Counted from the stretch's first letter, positions 29,955-49,611 are shown. The stretch is 63,246 nt of DNA from Salinivirgaceae bacterium (GCA_024405635.1 JAKSOL010000015.1:1-63246), one strand, 5' to 3'. A program made the numbers and translations. The notes: generated by a model from the letters alone, not told the origin.

Positions 29955-30294
29955 CCATTGGCGTAAAGTAAACGATTCTTTTTGTTACGATATACAAAGC
30001 CTTACCAAGTTCGGTAGTTTTTTTTTGTGTAATCTTCCCTAAGAGGCAATAATAGAGCCATATCTCGTTTTTTTTCAAAAAAGTGCTGCAAAAATGAAAC
30101 CTAATAGCCTGTCTTTCAGTATAAGAGAGTGTTTTTGTTAAGTTCTATTTAATGGTTATGCATCACGAACACCATAAAGGTGTACCAACCGAGTTTTAAT
30201 AATTGAGCACAATTGAAATCACGGTGGTTAGAGCTGGTTACTCGATGCGGGCTCAGTCCAAAAAAAATACACACATAGCTCCTTTAAATGATTG

Positions 30295-44066: not shown

Positions 44067-45446
44067 TTAGTTCAATGTAAAGTTGATTGGAATGTTGAAT
44101 GACACATTCACAACTTCGCCGCGCTGACGGCCCGGTGTCCATTGCGGTAGCAAACTTATAACTCGCATGGCCTCGTTATCAAGGCATTCGATACCTGTAC
44201 CTTTTAACAACTTCACATTTCCCACTTTGCCTTCTTTGTCGATTATAAAGGTTACATAAACCTTGCCTTCTTGTTGGTTTTCCTTGGCATCTTCGGGATA
44301 AACAATGTTTTCTGAAATGAAAGCGCGAAGAGCGTCGTCGCCACCAGGGAATTTTGGCATCTCCTCAACAATCATAAACACTTCATCGGTCGAAACCACG
44401 TCAGCATTTTCACCCTTCATAAGCGAAGGTTCTTTCTCTTCATAACTGCCGTCTTTCAGCTTAACAAACACTCTGTTGTCTTTTGATATAAACGTTGCAT
44501 TGGCAGGAATCTTGTCGTAATCGGCCTGCGAGATTCCTAATTCGGACAATGAGGGTTTCATATTTGTGCTATCTTTGCTGCACGATGAGTTGGCAAATGC
44601 AACTACCGCAAATGCCGCAATTGGTAGGACATAAAGCGCCTTGGCCAATGTCCAAACTGATGATTTTTTACGTGACATCATAGTTATTCTATATTTCAGT
44701 TTACTGTGATTAAAGCTGTTGGCAATTGAATACCACTTCCCGCCAGCAGCTTTTTTAATTAATAATATTTGGTATTGTTTTGCATTGATGCCTGAATCAA
44801 GAACGGCCTTGTCGGCCTCGTACTCGTGCAAGGCGCACAACTCTTGGCGCAATAGCCACATGGCCGGATTGTACCACTGCAAGCAGCACAGCACATCGCA
44901 CACCAGTACATCAACCGAGTGCATGCACCTTATGTGGGCCTGCTCGTGGGTTATTATCTCGCGGCTACTATCGTCGTAGTCCTTGCGGTTTATTACTATG
45001 TATTTTATCCAACTGAACGGAGCCTGCTCGTTGTCAACTATCACAAGTGTTGAGCCGTCAGATAGTTTTTGGTGCTCGCCCTGCGCTATTACGCGCACCA
45101 CTCCCACTATCGACAATGCCATGCGGACCAAACAAACCACAATGCCAAGGTAGAACACCACAACCACTGCCATTCGCCAATCGAACTCGGTTGCTGTAGG
45201 GTTTCCAACAATCACCTCCTCAAGCATAATCACTGGCTGCGCTATGGCGTAGGTGGCCGACTTGCCTGTGGAAACGTACTGAAACATCAGTCCGCCAAAC
45301 GGCAACAAAAACGACAACAAAATGCTGCCAAGTACTAAAAAACGGTTGGCACGATGCAGGGTCTCGCGACTCATAAACGAGCGAAACAACAAATAAAAAG
45401 CTATCAGCAAAGCCGACACCTTTAAACTATACACAAGCATTTCCAT
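44067..45446 (-). CDS. BlaR1/M56 peptidase fused to a C-terminal TonB domain
   Basis: APFSW, HEQAH (HExxH), QWYNPAMW, HEYEAD; C-terminal MPKFPGG...YP...EGKVYVTFII...WTPG. Confidence 0.92.
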   Translation of the reverse strand: MEMLVYSLKVSALLIAFYLLFRSFMSRETLHRANRFLVLGSILLSFLLPFGGLMFQYVSTGKSATYAIAQPVIMLEEVIVGNPTATEFDWRMAVVVVFYLGIVVCLVRMALSIVGVVRVIAQGEHQKLSDGSTLVIVDNEQAPFSWIKYIVINRKDYDDSSREIITHEQAHIRCMHSVDVLVCDVLCCLQWYNPAMWLLRQELCALHEYEADKAVLDSGINAKQYQILLIKKAAGGKWYSIANSFNHSKLKYRITMMSRKKSSVWTLAKALYVLPIAAFAVVAFANSSCSKDSTNMKPSLSELGISQADYDKIPANATFISKDNRVFVKLKDGSYEEKEPSLMKGENADVVSTDEVFMIVEEMPKFPGGDDALRAFISENIVYPEDAKENQQEGKVYVTFIIDKEGKVGNVKLLKGTGIECLDNEAMRVISLLPQWTPGRQRGEVVNVSFNIPINFTLN

Positions 45447-45448
45447 GA

Positions 45449-45805
45449 CTATTCCTCCTCAATTTTGCGAATCAGTTCCTTAAGTTCGTCAACCGAAAGA
45501 TCCTCTTCCTTAACCAATGCCGAAACAGCATTCTGGTATGAGTTTTGAAAATACTTGCCAATGATGCCACGCAAAGTGAGTTTGCCAAAATCGGTGCGCG
45601 ACACTTTTGCAAAATACTGATAGGTTGGTCCATACGATTTGTGGTCAACGTAGCCCTTGGCCTCAAGGCCACGCACCATTGTAGATATTGTGTTGAAATG
45701 AGGTTTTGGGTCGGGATAAAGTTCAACCAAGTCGCGGACAAACATTGGCCCATGCTCCCAAAAGAAGTTCATTACTTCCTCTTCCTTTTTTGTAATCTTC
45801 TCCAT
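45449..45805 (-). CDS. BlaI/MecI/CopY family repressor
   Basis: KEEEVM..FW, PHFNTISTMVRGLEAKGYV. Confidence 0.93.
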   Translation of the reverse strand: MEKITKKEEEVMNFFWEHGPMFVRDLVELYPDPKPHFNTISTMVRGLEAKGYVDHKSYGPTYQYFAKVSRTDFGKLTLRGIIGKYFQNSYQNAVSALVKEEDLSVDELKELIRKIEEE

Positions 45806-45838
45806 TGTTGTGATGTGTTTTTGTTGACAATGCTAAAG

Positions 45839-45886
45839 TAACTATAAAAATATTTTGTGCAACTATTTTTTTTAGTTGAGTAACTA
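45839..45886. promoter_or_regulatory. Putative BlaI operator array
   Basis: Palindrome CAACTA-N7-TAGTTG (45860-45878); AACTA half-sites at 45840, 45861 and 45882 (21-bp period) upstream of blaI. Confidence 0.55.
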
Positions 45887-46018
45887 TTTTTTTGATTGTT
45901 TAGACATATTTTGTTTTGCAAAGCAGAAACACTAACATTGTAGCAATAATAAACGACGATAATAAAATCAAGATTTAGAGAGACATAACATATTATTAAC
46001 ATAAGCATTAGCTATTAT

Positions 46019-46217
46019 TCACGTCCAAATCAAAAGCCTCGCAAACTGATGATTTCGGTTATCGGATAAACGCTAATCCACGAGACGCTTTGCGCTCTCG
46101 TATCCCTACCATTAGAGTTAATGCTCACGCCGATTAGGTGTGGGCTAATCTAGGTAGGATACGGGGTTCATGCGAGGCTCCTCGTGGACGTGATAGAGAG
46201 GTCCGCACCTTTCTTTT
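46019..46217 (+). ncRNA. Putative structured cis-regulatory leader RNA upstream of the type II R-M pair
   Basis: Nested long-range helices (46019-27/46185-93; 46035-43/46171-79), UUCG hairpin 46046-46065, long inner hairpin about 46096-46166, terminal hairpin with U-run 46195-46217. Confidence 0.6.
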
Positions 46218-46266
46218 GTCCGTATGTGATTGATAGTTGATTGCTGATAATTAACTATTAATTGAT

Positions 46267-47049
46267 ATGAATATTTACACGGAAAAAAGTATTGAATTGG
46301 CAAATCAACGTAATTATCTTGATTTGCTATTTAAAGTATATCCATTGAGTCCTGACTCTATCAGAGATATTGATGCAACAACTTGGAAGTCTGTAGAAAC
46401 GAACTATAAAAAGGGTAATAATACCGAATTGTTTAAGAGTTTGCTAAAACTGCCATTGTTTCCTGTAAAAGACGGTTATGTTCCTTATTTTAAGCATGAT
46501 TTAAGCGCCGTAGAGCGTAATCCGGATACTGTAGATAGGATTTGTGGAAGAGTCAGGGAGTTGGAATTGGACAAATTATGGGAAAAATGTACTCAACCCA
46601 AAGAGACCAACCGTCAAATGGGACCGTTGTTTCAAAACTGGCTTAACAAAGGTGTTCTTGGTTCATATCCCGTTGATGAAAAAATGTTCTTGTCAAAGAC
46701 CAAAGGAGTTGCCATCCTAGATGGAAGAGATTCGGCATTAGCTGATTTCGCCAATCGTTATCTTGGTTATACAAGAGATAAAGGTCTGGATTTTATAGCA
46801 AGAAAAGGTGATGTATTCATTATTGGAGAAGCAAAATTCATTTCTGATGAAGGTGGTCATCAAAATGACCAATTTCTTGATGCTATTACAACCCTAAATA
46901 CAAAAACGAAAAGGAACGTATTAAAAGTGGCTGTACTAGATGGTATATTGTATATCAAAAGTAAAAAGAAGATGTACCAGACAATCACTTCTAATGATGT
47001 CCCTGTTATGAGTGCCCTATTATTAAGAGATTATTTATACTCACTATGA
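46267..47049 (+). CDS. Type II restriction endonuclease (Tsp45I-family-like)
   Basis: KGLDF...IGEAKF PD-(D/E)XK-like motif; ATGA overlap with the downstream methyltransferase. The family name is recalled from the SIELANQRNYLD...ETNRQMGPLF...GGHQNDQF pattern and needs HMM confirmation. Confidence 0.75.
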   Translation: MNIYTEKSIELANQRNYLDLLFKVYPLSPDSIRDIDATTWKSVETNYKKGNNTELFKSLLKLPLFPVKDGYVPYFKHDLSAVERNPDTVDRICGRVRELELDKLWEKCTQPKETNRQMGPLFQNWLNKGVLGSYPVDEKMFLSKTKGVAILDGRDSALADFANRYLGYTRDKGLDFIARKGDVFIIGEAKFISDEGGHQNDQFLDAITTLNTKTKRNVLKVAVLDGILYIKSKKKMYQTITSNDVPVMSALLLRDYLYSL

Positions 47050-48113
47050 AGAACATTTTGATAAAAGGGGATAATGTTGCCGGTCTTAATTGGCTGATAG
47101 AAAACGGATATCAAGGCAAAGTTGATTTGGTTTATATAGACCCTCCCTTTGCAACTGGTGGTACTTTTTCCGTTGATGATAATGGTCGTGTTGCAACTAT
47201 AAGCAAATCCGAGAAATCTGTAGTTGCGTATAAAGATACATTGCAGGGTACTGAGTTTATTGATTTTTTACGTGAGCGTATCAAGTTAATTTATAAACTT
47301 CTGTCAGAGCAAGGTTCTTTTTATTTGCACATAGATTATAAGATTGGCCATTATGTAAAAGTTATGTTGGACGAAATTTTCGGTGTAGACAACTTCAGAA
47401 ATGATATTACTCGAATTAAGTGTAATCCAAAAAACTTTTCGCGAATCGGTTACGGCAATATTAAGGATATGATCTTATTTTACACCAAAGGAAAGAATCC
47501 AATTTGGAATGAGCCAAGAATTGAACATTCTGAAGAAGATCAAAAAAGATTATATTCGAAAATAGACAAAGACGGCCGAAGATACACTACAGTTCCTATT
47601 CACGCTCCTGGAGAAACAAAGGATGGGAAAACTGCACAAGCATTCAAAGGAATATATCCTCCCAAAGGAAGACATTGGCGTTGCTCAGTAGAAGAACTTG
47701 AAGAGCTCGATAAAAAAGGATTAATAGAGTGGTCGGAAAAAGGCAACCCAAGAAAAATTAATTACGCAGACGAAATGTTGGGTAAAAAAGTGCAAGACAT
47801 TTGGGACTTTAAAGATTCAATGTATCCAGATTATCCGACACAAAAAAATCCTGATATGTTGAGTCTTATCATATCTGCATCTTCTAACGAAAATTCAATA
47901 GTAATGGATTGTTTTTGTGGTTCAGGTTCAACCTTAAAAGTAGCACAAAATATGGGGCGTAACTGGATAGGGATTGACCAATCTGATGTTGCAATAGAAA
48001 TAACAAAGAAAGCCATTTCGCAAGATTTAAGTTTGTTTTCATCAAATGACGGTTTTGACTATTATGAATTACTGCCAAATGCTCTGCCGCGAATGCAACA
48101 GAAGGAAGAGTAG
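47046..48113 (+). CDS. Amino (N6-A/N4-C) DNA methyltransferase, beta class
   Basis: YIDPPF (motif IV) precedes YPTQK and DCFCGSGST (motif I). Confidence 0.93.
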   Translation: MKNILIKGDNVAGLNWLIENGYQGKVDLVYIDPPFATGGTFSVDDNGRVATISKSEKSVVAYKDTLQGTEFIDFLRERIKLIYKLLSEQGSFYLHIDYKIGHYVKVMLDEIFGVDNFRNDITRIKCNPKNFSRIGYGNIKDMILFYTKGKNPIWNEPRIEHSEEDQKRLYSKIDKDGRRYTTVPIHAPGETKDGKTAQAFKGIYPPKGRHWRCSVEELEELDKKGLIEWSEKGNPRKINYADEMLGKKVQDIWDFKDSMYPDYPTQKNPDMLSLIISASSNENSIVMDCFCGSGSTLKVAQNMGRNWIGIDQSDVAIEITKKAISQDLSLFSSNDGFDYYELLPNALPRMQQKEE

Positions 48114-48200
48114 CAAGTAGTTGGTAAGTTATAAGTAGTAGGTTTTACGTTCTACAAATCAACGAATAAACAGTTCAACGCATCAACTGCAGAACCGTGC

Positions 48201-48249
48201 CTTCGACAAGCTCAGGCGCCGCGCGTATTGGTGGCTGAGCCTGTCGAAG
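48201..48249. repeat. REP-like inverted repeat (CTTCGACAAGCTCAG type)
   Basis: cttcgacaagctcag ... ctgagcctgtcgaag, 15-bp arms with one mismatch. Confidence 0.75.
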
Positions 48250-48309
48250 CCACTACCCATTAATCATTGTTATTCGATTCAACAAAAAAATGTAGTGGCT
48301 TTTAAGAAA

Positions 48310-48432: not shown

Positions 48433-49611
48433 ATGAACACATTAATAGAAACATATAAACTTTTGCTTAATAGAGTTAAGACCGATTTTGTACGATATCT
48501 TCACGATAAGATAAATTGGGAGAATCGATTGGTTGCTATATTGGGAGCTAGAGGTACGGGAAAAACAACTTTGCTACTACAACATATTAAAATGTGCGAT
48601 GAAATTGAAACCTCGCTCTACGTAACGGCAGACGATTTTTACTTTACCACTCACAGATTATTCGATTTGGCAAAGGAATTTTACCAAATAGGAGGAAAGA
48701 AACTCTACATTGACGAGATACATAAATATGAAGGTTGGTCGTTAGAAATAAAAAATATATACGACCTTTTGCCCGACCTTCATGTTGTTTATACAGGTTC
48801 GTCTATTCTTGATTTGGAGCGAGGCGGAGTGGATTTAAGCAGAAGAAAAGTGGAGTATCATTTAATGGGACTATCTTTTCGTGAGTACATCAACATTTCT
48901 CTATTTGAAAACTTTCCCGCTTATTCGTTGGAAGAAGTATTAGTAGGTAAGGTTGATTTTCCGTATGCAAAGTATCGCCCAATAGCGCTTTTTAAGCAAT
49001 ATTTAAAAACGGGCTATTATCCATTTTTTATGGAATCAGACGACTATGCACTTCGGCTTAAAAGTGTATTAAAGCAGGTGGTGGAGTTTGATATACCTAC
49101 GTATGCTAAAATGAATATTACATCAAGTGCAAAACTCAAAAAACTGCTTTATGTGATAGCGCAAAGTGTTCCCTTTAAACCAAACTTTTCCGTCTTGGAA
49201 AAAGAGTTGGGCATATCAAGAAACATTTTGCCCGATTATTTGATGTATTTAGAAAAGGCGCAATTAATTACGTTGGTTCGCGAAAAGGCCACAGGAATAA
49301 AAGTGTTGCAAAAAATAGATAAGATATACTTGAATAATCCCAATATATCATACGTTTTAGCTGATGGCGATACAGACAAAGGAACCGTTAGGGAGAATAT
49401 TTTTATTCAATTTTTTCAAGACTTGCATCCAATTGTTAGTTCACCAACACAAGCCGATTTTGAGGTGAATGGTTACACGTTTGAAGTGGGCGGCAAGAAC
49501 AAAACAGCTCAACAAATCAAAGGAGTGGAAAACTCATACATTGTAAAAGACGACATTGAATATGCCTCTTTGCGCGAGATTCCGCTTTGGATGTTCGGCT
49601 TTTTGTATTGA
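48433..49611 (+). CDS. AAA+ ATPase (AAA_14) with DUF4143 / PD-(D/E)XK-like C-terminus
   Basis: GARGTGKTT, YIDEIH, TGSS, LSRR, GYYP, KIYLNN, ADF...FEVGGK, IPLWMFGFLY. Confidence 0.9.
   Translation: MNTLIETYKLLLNRVKTDFVRYLHDKINWENRLVAILGARGTGKTTLLLQHIKMCDEIETSLYVTADDFYFTTHRLFDLAKEFYQIGGKKLYIDEIHKYEGWSLEIKNIYDLLPDLHVVYTGSSILDLERGGVDLSRRKVEYHLMGLSFREYINISLFENFPAYSLEEVLVGKVDFPYAKYRPIALFKQYLKTGYYPFFMESDDYALRLKSVLKQVVEFDIPTYAKMNITSSAKLKKLLYVIAQSVPFKPNFSVLEKELGISRNILPDYLMYLEKAQLITLVREKATGIKVLQKIDKIYLNNPNISYVLADGDTDKGTVRENIFIQFFQDLHPIVSSPTQADFEVNGYTFEVGGKNKTAQQIKGVENSYIVKDDIEYASLREIPLWMFGFLY

Follow-up and report, generated by a model that had tools for sequence, protein, structure and literature searches.

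Introduction

The expression of restriction-modification (R-M) systems is known to be controlled by C (controller) proteins, by methyltransferase autoregulation, by antisense RNAs and by the RptR repressor. A different type of control is represented by the JUMPstart/ops elements, which act with RfaH, and by the UpxY-dependent 5' untranslated regions (UTRs) of Bacteroides capsule operons, which are short signals recruiting NusG paralogs to long operons. To our knowledge, little is known about the regulation of R-M and other barrier genes, especially in Bacteroidales, the dominant gut order. In our literature searches, RNA-level control by a large conserved leader was not among the modes of R-M regulation found; the available part of a 2013 R-M review (PMC3874152) contains no mention of "riboswitch" or "leader RNA", and RptR is described as a protein repressor (PMC12255303). 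Among Bacteroides RNAs, the FopS family is described (PMC11697453) as trans-acting RNAs of 65-70 nt that target susC mRNAs. Here, we report a structured RNA leader located in front of a Tsp45I-type R-M operon in a 63,246-nt stretch of DNA from a Salinivirgaceae bacterium (GCA_024405635.1, JAKSOL010000015.1:1-63246), hereafter called the window.

The core of the leader (46019-46217, + strand) had been pointed out in an earlier, sequence-only reading of the window as a switch-like RNA, which was proposed to be an attenuator timing endonuclease expression or a noncoding RNA (ncRNA) component of the R-M system. We have found that it belongs to a multi-copy RNA family whose copies abut the start codons of unrelated genes, mostly for DNA modification or restriction. 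With moderate confidence, we favour that this is a family of cis-acting structured 5' leaders in which two mutually exclusive conformations hide or expose the start codon.

Results

A conserved RNA fold upstream of the endonuclease gene

The G+C content of the element was 0.47 (46000-46199), compared with 0.25 (45800-45999) and 0.32 (46200-46399) in its flanks, in agreement with the GC-richer block of the sequence-only reading. All the helices which that reading had listed were found at their positions, these being P1, P2, a hairpin at 46046-46065 with the loop UUUCGG, an inner stem, and a terminal hairpin (agagaggt/accuuucu, 46195-46214) that is followed by UUU and lies 52 nt before the ATG at 46267 (Table 1). 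The block is thus a real structured core, but the comparison of copies revealed a longer conserved unit of ~285 nt, extending from ~45986 to the ATG (46267-46269), and two elements had been overlooked: a hairpin at the start codon (H2) and a long-range pairing of the 5' leader (P0). In the complete unit, a conserved single-stranded stretch at the 5' side precedes the multi-branched core with P1-P4, which is followed by P5, a hairpin resembling a terminator, and by H2. The + strand folded with -88.4 kcal/mol (z -7.28), a value equalled by 0 of 200 shuffles, and the - strand with -75.7 kcal/mol (z -4.32). For the full leader of the window copy, the minimum-energy fold had -107.4 kcal/mol (z -7.31), with the AUG being paired.

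We have built a covariance model from seven copies with hand-annotated helices. This annotation replaced the structure given by RNAalifold for the first seven sequences, which had missed P2 because of the gap placement by MAFFT. Two sets of copies were then compared, one of 37 copies (first set) and one of 78 copies from named metagenome-assembled genomes (MAGs); the latter, as well as its subsets of 71 and 60 mentioned below, rests on the 80 listed of at least 118 stretches retrieved by an exact-pattern scan. The nested helices were paired in 93.7% of the cells in the first set (42-54% with shifted partners) and in 94.0% in the second (38-60% shifted), among the matches listed. The corresponding covariation scores were 0.465 against at most 0.106, and 0.320 against at most 0.060. 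Changes on both sides affected 29/38 and 27/38 pairs, respectively, as for the conserved, covarying, aptamer-like domains of riboswitch classes. In addition, G-U/U-G cells exceeded A-C/C-A cells by 187 to 20 in the first set and by 296 to 47 in the second. Hence, it is the + strand that folds, and it does so as RNA. The covariation check suggested along with the sequence-only reading therefore bore out its view of an RNA-level structure.

The individual helices behaved similarly. P1 was paired in 98.6% of the cells in the 37 copies (both-side changes in 7/8 pairs) and in 99.5% in the 78 copies. In the 37 copies, P2 reached 99.1%, with both-side changes in 6/6 modelled pairs, P3 86.7%, with such changes in 6/7 pairs, and P5 97.6%, its loop and arms being kept in sequence. 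For the P3 region, the single-sequence fold gave a slightly different local hairpin. The helix at the tip of P4 was paired in 88.2% (37 copies) and 95.5% (78 copies) of the cells; in the lower P4 stem, and likewise in a small hairpin that follows the pseudoknot strand, the sequence differed among the copies, with pairing kept in each.

The conserved unit runs up to the downstream gene's start codon

The homology between copies begins ~20-50 nt ahead of P1, where TAACATATTnATTAACA and then GCATTAGCTATTATTC are found, passes P5 and H2, and ends at the ATG. The H2 consensus consists of GUGAUUGAUAG, a loop of ~10 nt with UGC, and CUAUCAAUCAC, and most copies have 0-8 nt between this hairpin and the ATG. 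In 103 copies, H2 was paired in 89.9% of the cells (18-38% shifted), and its mismatches were mainly G-U (80 G-U/U-G against 29 A-C/C-A cells).

A co-oriented open reading frame (ORF) of at least 150 aa started at most 100 nt downstream in 36/37 copies of the first set and in 60/71 copies among the listed matches of the named-MAG set. The remaining 11 of these 71 included four copies with ORFs of 70-90 aa, four with less than 220 nt of downstream sequence and three with no ORF. Upstream of the leader we have searched for the Bacteroidetes -7 promoter box, the consensus of which is TAnnTTTG. An exact box ended 35-85 nt upstream of GCATTA in 49/109 copies, with a peak at 60-69 nt; the controls gave 5 (opposite strand) and 3.0 (shuffles). 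Position and orientation thus fitted a 5' UTR, with a promoter box enriched upstream, and each copy is probably transcribed together with its downstream gene, as judged from this arrangement. At a locus with differing cargo, a tRNA gene (L049:1874-1957, - strand) lies ~160 nt upstream of a co-oriented leader copy.

Alternative pairings compatible with a two-state switch

A competing pairing, tccacgag with ctcgtgga, had already been noticed in the window sequence. It was kept across the family: in 52 copies, 46077-46084 and 46181-46188 were paired in 72.8% of the cells (27-52% shifted), with a covariation score of 0.189 against at most 0.066. Examples of compensatory changes are CGCGGG/CUUCGCG and GCGUCUAAC/GUUAGACGC. 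The partner of 46077-46084 is composed of the linker and the first bases of the P1 3' strand, and the helix is a pseudoknot relative to P2. The other alternative that had been proposed, acgaga/tctcgt, is present in the sequence of the window copy.

The second alternative helix, P0, joins 46007-46026 to 46222-46241. In the window, it had an energy of -18.1 kcal/mol (z -4.8), and none of 1,000 shuffled leaders did as well; no other segment of the leader was as good a partner for the H2 5' arm as its 5' strand. Across 108 copies, P0 was paired in 90.8% of the cells (18-62% shifted). The pseudoknot, the linker alternative and P0 all compete with P1 or H2. Another long-range helix, between the 5' leader and the segment before the pseudoknot strand, was considered and discarded, its duplexes being no better than shuffles (mean z -0.47).

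Based on these pairings, we propose the following switch. In state 1, P1 would form and H2 would pair the 20 nt before the start codon, and in the window copy the AUG itself, so that the ribosome would be kept off. In state 2, the P1 3' strand and the linker would pair with the internal segment to give the pseudoknot, and the P1 5' strand together with the conserved 5' leader would pair with the H2 5' arm (P0), freeing the start region. An effector binding to the conserved multi-helix core, be it a protein, another RNA or a small molecule, would set the balance between the two states. P5 and its U-run may add partial transcription attenuation.

Several observations weigh against such a reading. 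The helix counts come from alignments fitted to the model, which favours the structure of the model, and, the copies being related, significance is overestimated by the shuffle controls. ACGGGG (46161-46166) is another possible partner of the linker; it paired with CCUCGU in 81.7% of the cells, two shifted controls reaching 75-85%, so that more than one topology is possible. The changes in P0 were mostly one-sided (e.g., G-U/A-U/G-C at one position), with both-side changes in only 4 cells, and cognate and non-cognate leader/H2 duplexes did not differ significantly in energy (p 0.18), so the argument for P0 is one of conserved pairing. In the window copy itself, the promoter search gave only a near-match box (45907-45913) and no exact TAnnTTTG. 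Lastly, P5 has eight pairs, of which three are G-C, before its UUU. It was not called in a consensus terminator scan, which found 0 terminator-like sites in 45400-46700, and it lacks the G+C-rich hairpin with U-run of an intrinsic-terminator attenuator. With this weak terminator, the attenuator proposed in the sequence-only reading is not supported as stated, and for the same reason attenuation enters our model just as a possible addition.

For both alternative helices, the support thus comes mostly from conservation and one-sided (wobble) changes, and this is where a constitutive leader has to be considered. A portable 5' UTR with no switch would stabilise the mRNA or set a fixed low translation of costly acquired genes, and it would be conserved since it travels with its cargo and aids its exchange. 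Such a UTR would agree with the same leader being found at the ATG of unrelated genes, with the exact ORF swap described below and with a minimum-energy fold that is a single well-defined structure. We consider it unlikely, however, because a stabiliser needs neither so many conserved unpaired nucleotides nor three exclusive pairings centred on P1/H2, and a hairpin that pairs the start codon would silence the gene unless opened.

The points against the two-state leader also include short relatives of ~160 nt, detected at 27-39 bits in other Bacteroidales families (L084:1501-1664, L094:1501-1664, L086:43-201, L090:1271-1427 and others, several of them near the ends of short contigs). These retain the 5' motif, P1, P2, the conserved hairpin tip and P5, and are without P3, the pseudoknot strand and H2. 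They adjoin T9SS-sorted (Por_Secre_tail) or unknown proteins, some at 340-400 nt from the next ORF, and may represent a simpler or free-standing form; the missing H2 and the distant ORF are consistent with a free-standing RNA in that subgroup. Extended to the whole family, the idea would be that of a trans-acting small RNA ending at P5, with the downstream gene being expressed by read-through or being a mere neighbour. Besides the distance of some short relatives from an ORF, the hairpin and U-run directly after the structured core and the multi-copy nature of the family would be accounted for. Nevertheless, conservation does not stop at P5 but includes H2 and reaches the ATG at a fixed spacing, the orientation always matches that of the downstream ORF, P5 is weak as a terminator, and the P5-ATG gap, being only ~50 nt, leaves no room for a promoter. 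This makes a free-standing RNA distinctly improbable, and the two-state cis-acting leader is the reading that we retain.

A multi-copy RNA family of the order Bacteroidales

A second copy of the leader was found in the same genome on another contig, with 74% identity, and BLAST retrieved diverged copies in a sister genus. With the covariance model we have collected at least 130 copies, 52 in a same-order genome set and 78 in Bacteroidales gut MAGs among the matches listed, with 2-7 copies per genome. At the family level (E up to 0.01), 16/33 genomes had matches, namely that of the window, 13/16 of the sister genus and two of another genus with weak matches; the maximum was 7 matches per genome. 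At the order level, 13/151 sampled genomes matched, the window's own included, with strong matches in four other families. Finally, in a phylum-wide sample (n = 151), matches were confined to the window's own genome and to two genomes of one same-order family.

The exact-pattern scan covered 185,579 species genomes and gave at least 118 stretches. Among the 80 listed, 79 were titled Bacteroidales, Bacteroidia or Bacteroidetes MAGs, mainly from rumen or herbivore gut, with Paludibacteraceae, Salinivirgaceae, Prevotella/Segatella copri and Candidatus Colimorpha among the taxa; 77 had a covariance-model match, and the remaining title, a Pseudoalteromonas record, had none. Among the genomes sampled and the matches listed, the family is specific to the order Bacteroidales.

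The sequence-only reading could not assign the element to a known family, and the Rfam searches led to the same result. Rfam 15 (4,227 models), run over the whole window, returned only SAM-I/IV at 30155-30275 and left the element unmatched; a local Rfam search at E up to 10 gave seven matches (best E 0.74), all far below the gathering threshold; and for 20 diverse members (E up to 0.5) the sole match was to a tRNA. No tRNA or tmRNA was found in the window, and phage and plasmid collections contained no match to the element.

In gut-metagenome contigs (four sets), the summed depth of the leader bin was several-fold higher (156 versus 27 in X1), the contigs ended inside the leader and the sequences after position 46217 differed. 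Excess depth, contig breaks and varied 3' sequences are consistent with the leader being a multi-copy repeat. Two apparent joints in these data, 46039>48071 and 46217>48076, were distrusted because their short sides were 24-29 letters at 85% likeness; no repeat was found between the leader and 48071.

The leader precedes barrier-type genes of unrelated families

The first gene behind the leader was mostly one for DNA modification or restriction, with a minority coding for surface-glycan-modifying enzymes. In the first set, a protein of ~820 aa with no Pfam, NCBIfam or PADLOC match was encoded in 12/37 cases, an EcoRI-type adenine methyltransferase in 8/37, an MmeI-type IIG enzyme in 4/37, and a Tsp45I endonuclease plus methyltransferase and a GT25 glycosyltransferase in 2/37 each. 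Single cases (1/37 each) were a C5 methyltransferase, an N6 methyltransferase/type IIG enzyme, a ResIII-HNH helicase (at the second copy of the window's own genome), a Sulfatase-domain (LtaS-like) protein and an SF1 helicase (at a weak copy). Three further proteins had no family match (3/37; L040, L067 and L069, with L040 unscanned), and one locus had no ORF of at least 150 aa (1/37; L057). Six copies in other families preceded four EcoRI-type methyltransferases, one N6/N4 methyltransferase and one MmeI fragment. Among the listed matches of the named-MAG set, the 60 proteins included 39 EcoRI_methylase, three acyltransferase-3, three sulfatase, two GT2 and two DUF2334 members, with one each of C5, D12 and N6/N4 methyltransferase, MmeI, Tsp45I and GT25. 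Glycan-modifying enzymes stood behind about 1 in 6 copies.

The second gene belonged to a single cluster in 26/53 loci, and 3/3 scanned representatives were GmrSD_N + HNH nucleases. A recurrent module consisted of an adenine methyltransferase of the EcoRI type (PF13651) and, behind it, a GmrSD_N (DUF262) + HNH nuclease of ~365 aa, as in L125:1475-3649 (+), L115:1030-3219 (+) and L109:529-2701 (-). Behind the second copy in the window's own genome (L105, contig 33, 3-6939, -), a run of genes resembled a defence island: a ResIII helicase with a C-terminal HNH (753 aa), an unknown protein of 172 aa, an M48 peptidase/TerB protein and a Z1-domain protein of 948 aa, with a DUF4160/DUF2442 pair upstream.

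The ~820-aa protein was the commonest cargo in the sister genus (L104:4395-6866, -; L103:5603-8071, -; 10 further loci). Its nearest named ESM Atlas clusters were Eco57I/N6_Mtase-like (score 0.96), which we treat as a lead only; the protein may be an unrecognised type IIG-like enzyme. More generally, the covariance model can flag candidate defence genes that have no family assignment, this protein behind 12/37 copies being an example.

Tabulating downstream genes had been suggested together with the sequence-only reading, and the homologs proved to be tied to defence-type genes rather than scattered. The two functions envisaged for the RNA fared worse. Timing of endonuclease expression is not specifically supported, since most copies stand directly before a methyltransferase gene or one for a fused type IIG enzyme and about a sixth before a gene for a glycan-modifying enzyme, and a component of one R-M system would not be expected as the same RNA before unrelated gene families. 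The remark that no C-protein gene is present was right for the flanking ORFs scanned (BlaI-type, Tsp45I, methyltransferase and the Pfam-blank 78-aa ORF), among which no C-like controller was found, C-boxes not having been searched. We have also considered S-adenosylmethionine (SAM) as a ligand, most of the cargo being SAM-dependent, and judged it unlikely, as the same leader is also found before transferases of the glycosyl, acyl and phosphoethanolamine types.

The nature of the cargo also bears on processive antitermination, in which the RNA, in the manner of put of phage HK022 and of the EAR element of Bacillus eps operons, would modify the polymerase so that neither P5 nor termination within AT-rich foreign genes halts it. 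A complex conserved fold immediately before a terminator-like hairpin would suit such a role. So would the part of the cargo made up of surface-polysaccharide genes, which are typically under specialised antitermination. Against this, the operons are short (1-3 genes), no similarity to an Rfam family was found, and H2 at the start codon and the alternative pairings would be left unexplained. We therefore regard antitermination as very improbable and keep to a leader acting on the start region.

Cargo exchange at the ATG

At a syntenic locus of two sister-genus species, 92% identity over 3.3 kb ended 0-3 nt from the ATG behind the leader. From there, one species carries a 2.45-kb ORF (815 aa) and the other a 0.8-kb GT25 gene (266 aa), and homology returns at the stop codon, in a G+C-rich, REP-like palindrome region (L227/L228). 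This is one exact ATG-to-stop swap of cargo, the right border of which is a REP-like repeat and not a second H2. Every cargo gene being fused to the same leader exactly at the ATG, the leader could also serve as a homology arm for the exchange of cargo ORFs, and recombination anywhere within it would then yield a swap. Such an exchange behind a constant leader suggests a simple way of shuffling defence genes with their regulation kept. In the window, a G+C-rich palindromic REP-like repeat (48165-48255, arms 48197-48220 and 48230-48253) lies just 3' of the R-M cassette; a query spanning it (48040-48270) had 18 matches in the same genome, some of them tandem.

The exchange border at H2/ATG would also fit a DNA-level element, such as a recombination site (of the integron or dif type), a promoter that inverts or a miniature inverted-repeat transposable element (MITE). 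Inverted repeats are present in P1 and H2, metagenome contigs break at the element, which is a multi-copy repeat, and the cargo (R-M enzymes, methyltransferases and lipopolysaccharide (LPS) glycosyltransferases) resembles phase-variable genes. However, four nested helices covary with a strong bias of G-U over A-C, and P1 sequences vary freely, unlike the core site of a recombinase. Moreover, 52/52 matches of the same-order genome set span model positions 1-212 in a single orientation, as do, among the listed MAG matches not cut by a contig end, all but two weak ones (21-24 bits). No core was inverted relative to its flanks among the at least 130 model matches, of which the assemblies show the major form only. 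The upstream neighbours were diverse (47 clusters among 59 loci), and their scanned representatives were a YhcG nuclease and an AAA_14 ATPase, with no recombinase. Nor did the REP-like right border of the swap or the phage and plasmid collections speak for mobility of this type.

A match to a MITE or insertion sequence (IS) end, which would have spoken against the sequence-only reading, was looked for: the copies abut a co-oriented ATG, contain internal covarying helices and have no plasmid or phage match, target-site duplications being unchecked. As for integrons, no integrase, attC sites or cassette arrays were seen, and each locus had one copy. A DNA-level element is thus most improbable.

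Features of the locus

The features of the window around the leader are given in Table 1. Upstream, the BlaI-type repressor forms a pair with an M56 peptidase of BlaR1 type that carries a fused TonB C-terminal domain (44067-45805, -). This pair is kept with ~74% DNA identity in 14/16 sister-genus genomes, in which no leader copy follows it; the synteny stops at window position 45893 and is uninformative on the right border of the cassette. Far from the leader, 30155-30275 (+) is a SAM-I/IV riboswitch aptamer (41.4 bits, gathering score 41.1).

Table 1. Positions of the leader elements and neighbouring genes in the window
Feature	Coordinates	Strand	Remarks
BlaI-type repressor	45449-45805	-	Divergent, upstream
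78-aa ORF	45772-46008	-	No Pfam match
-7-box near-match TATTTTG	45907-45913	+	Weak promoter candidate, window copy only
5' segment, TAACATATTATTAACATAA then GCATTAGCTATTAT	45986-46018	+	Conserved across loci upstream of P1; included in covariance model
P0 5' strand	46007-46026	+	Proposed partner 46222-46241; overlaps first P1 bases; competes with H2
Structured leader core	46019-46217	+	Within the ~285-nt conserved unit
P1 5' strand, tcacgtcca	46019-46027	+	Pairs with tggacgtga, 46185-46193
A-rich junction	46028-46034	+	Between P1 and P2 5' strands
P2 5' strand, agcctcgca	46035-46043	+	Pairs with tgcgaggct, 46171-46179
P3 hairpin, CUGAUGA/UUAUCGG, loop UUUCGG	46046-46065	+	Comparative helix
Pseudoknot strand (P1 alternative), tccacgag	46077-46084	+	Pairs with ctcgtgga, 46181-46188
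P4 long hairpin	46098-46165	+	Encloses gctcacgcc/ggtgtgggc
P4 tip, GCUCACGCC-GAUUA-GGUGUGGGC	46123-46145	+	Conserved
P2 3' strand (46171-46179), linker CCUCGU, P1 3' strand (46185-46193)	46171-46193	+	Linker can also pair with ACGGGG, 46161-46166
P5 terminator-like hairpin, AGAGAGGU-CCGC-ACCUUUCU then UUU	46195-46217	+	Fold
H2 hairpin	46221-46269	+	Core 46228-46263; outer pairs 46221-46225:46265-46269 include AUG of Tsp45I gene
Tsp45I-type restriction endonuclease	46267-47049	+	Pfam PF06300, 1.7e-109
N6/N4 DNA methyltransferase	47046-48113	+	Pfam PF01555, 5.4e-45
Cargo operon, endonuclease + methyltransferase	46267-48113	+	Pfam
AAA_14/DUF4143 ATPase	48433-49611		Downstream of methyltransferase gene

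Discussion

The element described here is a previously uncatalogued, probably cis-regulatory leader, unusual in its cargo, in its copy number and as a constant junction at which cargo would be exchanged. Our literature searches found no description of such an RNA; supplementary motif tables such as those of PMC8040213 might contain the motif, and the main text of that paper has no mention of "restriction", "methyltransferase" or "methylase".

What the leader would respond to can be considered together with its cargo. It is possible, though doubtful, that the RNA is a sensor, either riboswitch-like or bound by an effector protein, that places anti-phage barrier genes in one regulon responding to a shared cue, for instance the entry of DNA or an attack by phage, and that it also provides a standard "socket" for cargo ORFs. 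The regulon would then include R-M operons, orphan DNA methyltransferases and enzymes altering the surface glycans used as phage receptors. Any ORF fused at the ATG would gain control, and recombination in the leader would let strains swap cargo. Since barrier genes of many rumen and gut species are preceded by this one RNA family, at 2-7 copies per genome, it would define a phage-barrier regulon. Independently of the signal, the model offers a concrete, testable switch of four helices and an orphan RNA domain for which ligands or binding proteins could be sought.

In comparison with the known modes of R-M control, the leader shares the position at the front of R-M operons, where expression must be limited. 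It differs in being an RNA fold common to unrelated enzymes, with no C gene found among the flanking ORFs scanned. Like the 5' conserved segment of class 1 integrons, it is a single leader before many promoterless cargoes, with the exchange border by the start codon; unlike in class 1 integrons, no integrase, attC sites or arrays were seen, and the exchange resembles homologous recombination through the leader and downstream repeats.

As with the JUMPstart/ops and UpxY leaders, a conserved leader is common to many horizontally acquired operons of a genome. Here, however, it has a covarying fold of ~200 nt, the operons are short and the cargo is mostly for DNA modification. With FopS/GibS, the family shares the multi-copy occurrence in Bacteroidales, canonical promoters and a predicted action at translation initiation regions, whereas the RNA described here is linked in cis and has about four times their length, a distinction that is drawn from the description of those RNAs and not from sequence comparison.

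The closest resemblance is to orphan riboswitch candidates and cis-regulatory leaders. These have in common with the present family a covarying multi-helix domain with many conserved unpaired nucleotides; a location in a co-oriented 5' UTR and a following expression platform of mutually exclusive helices covering the start region would be further shared traits, as predicted here from position and pairing potential. The differences are that the downstream genes do not belong to one metabolic pathway but to R-M, methyltransferase and surface-glycan functions, and that in the proposed switch the two closing-helix strands both seem to be used, together with a long-range helix across ~200 nt. By analogy, the nearest functional counterpart of the RNA would be a leader of the riboswitch type whose expression platform acts on translation.

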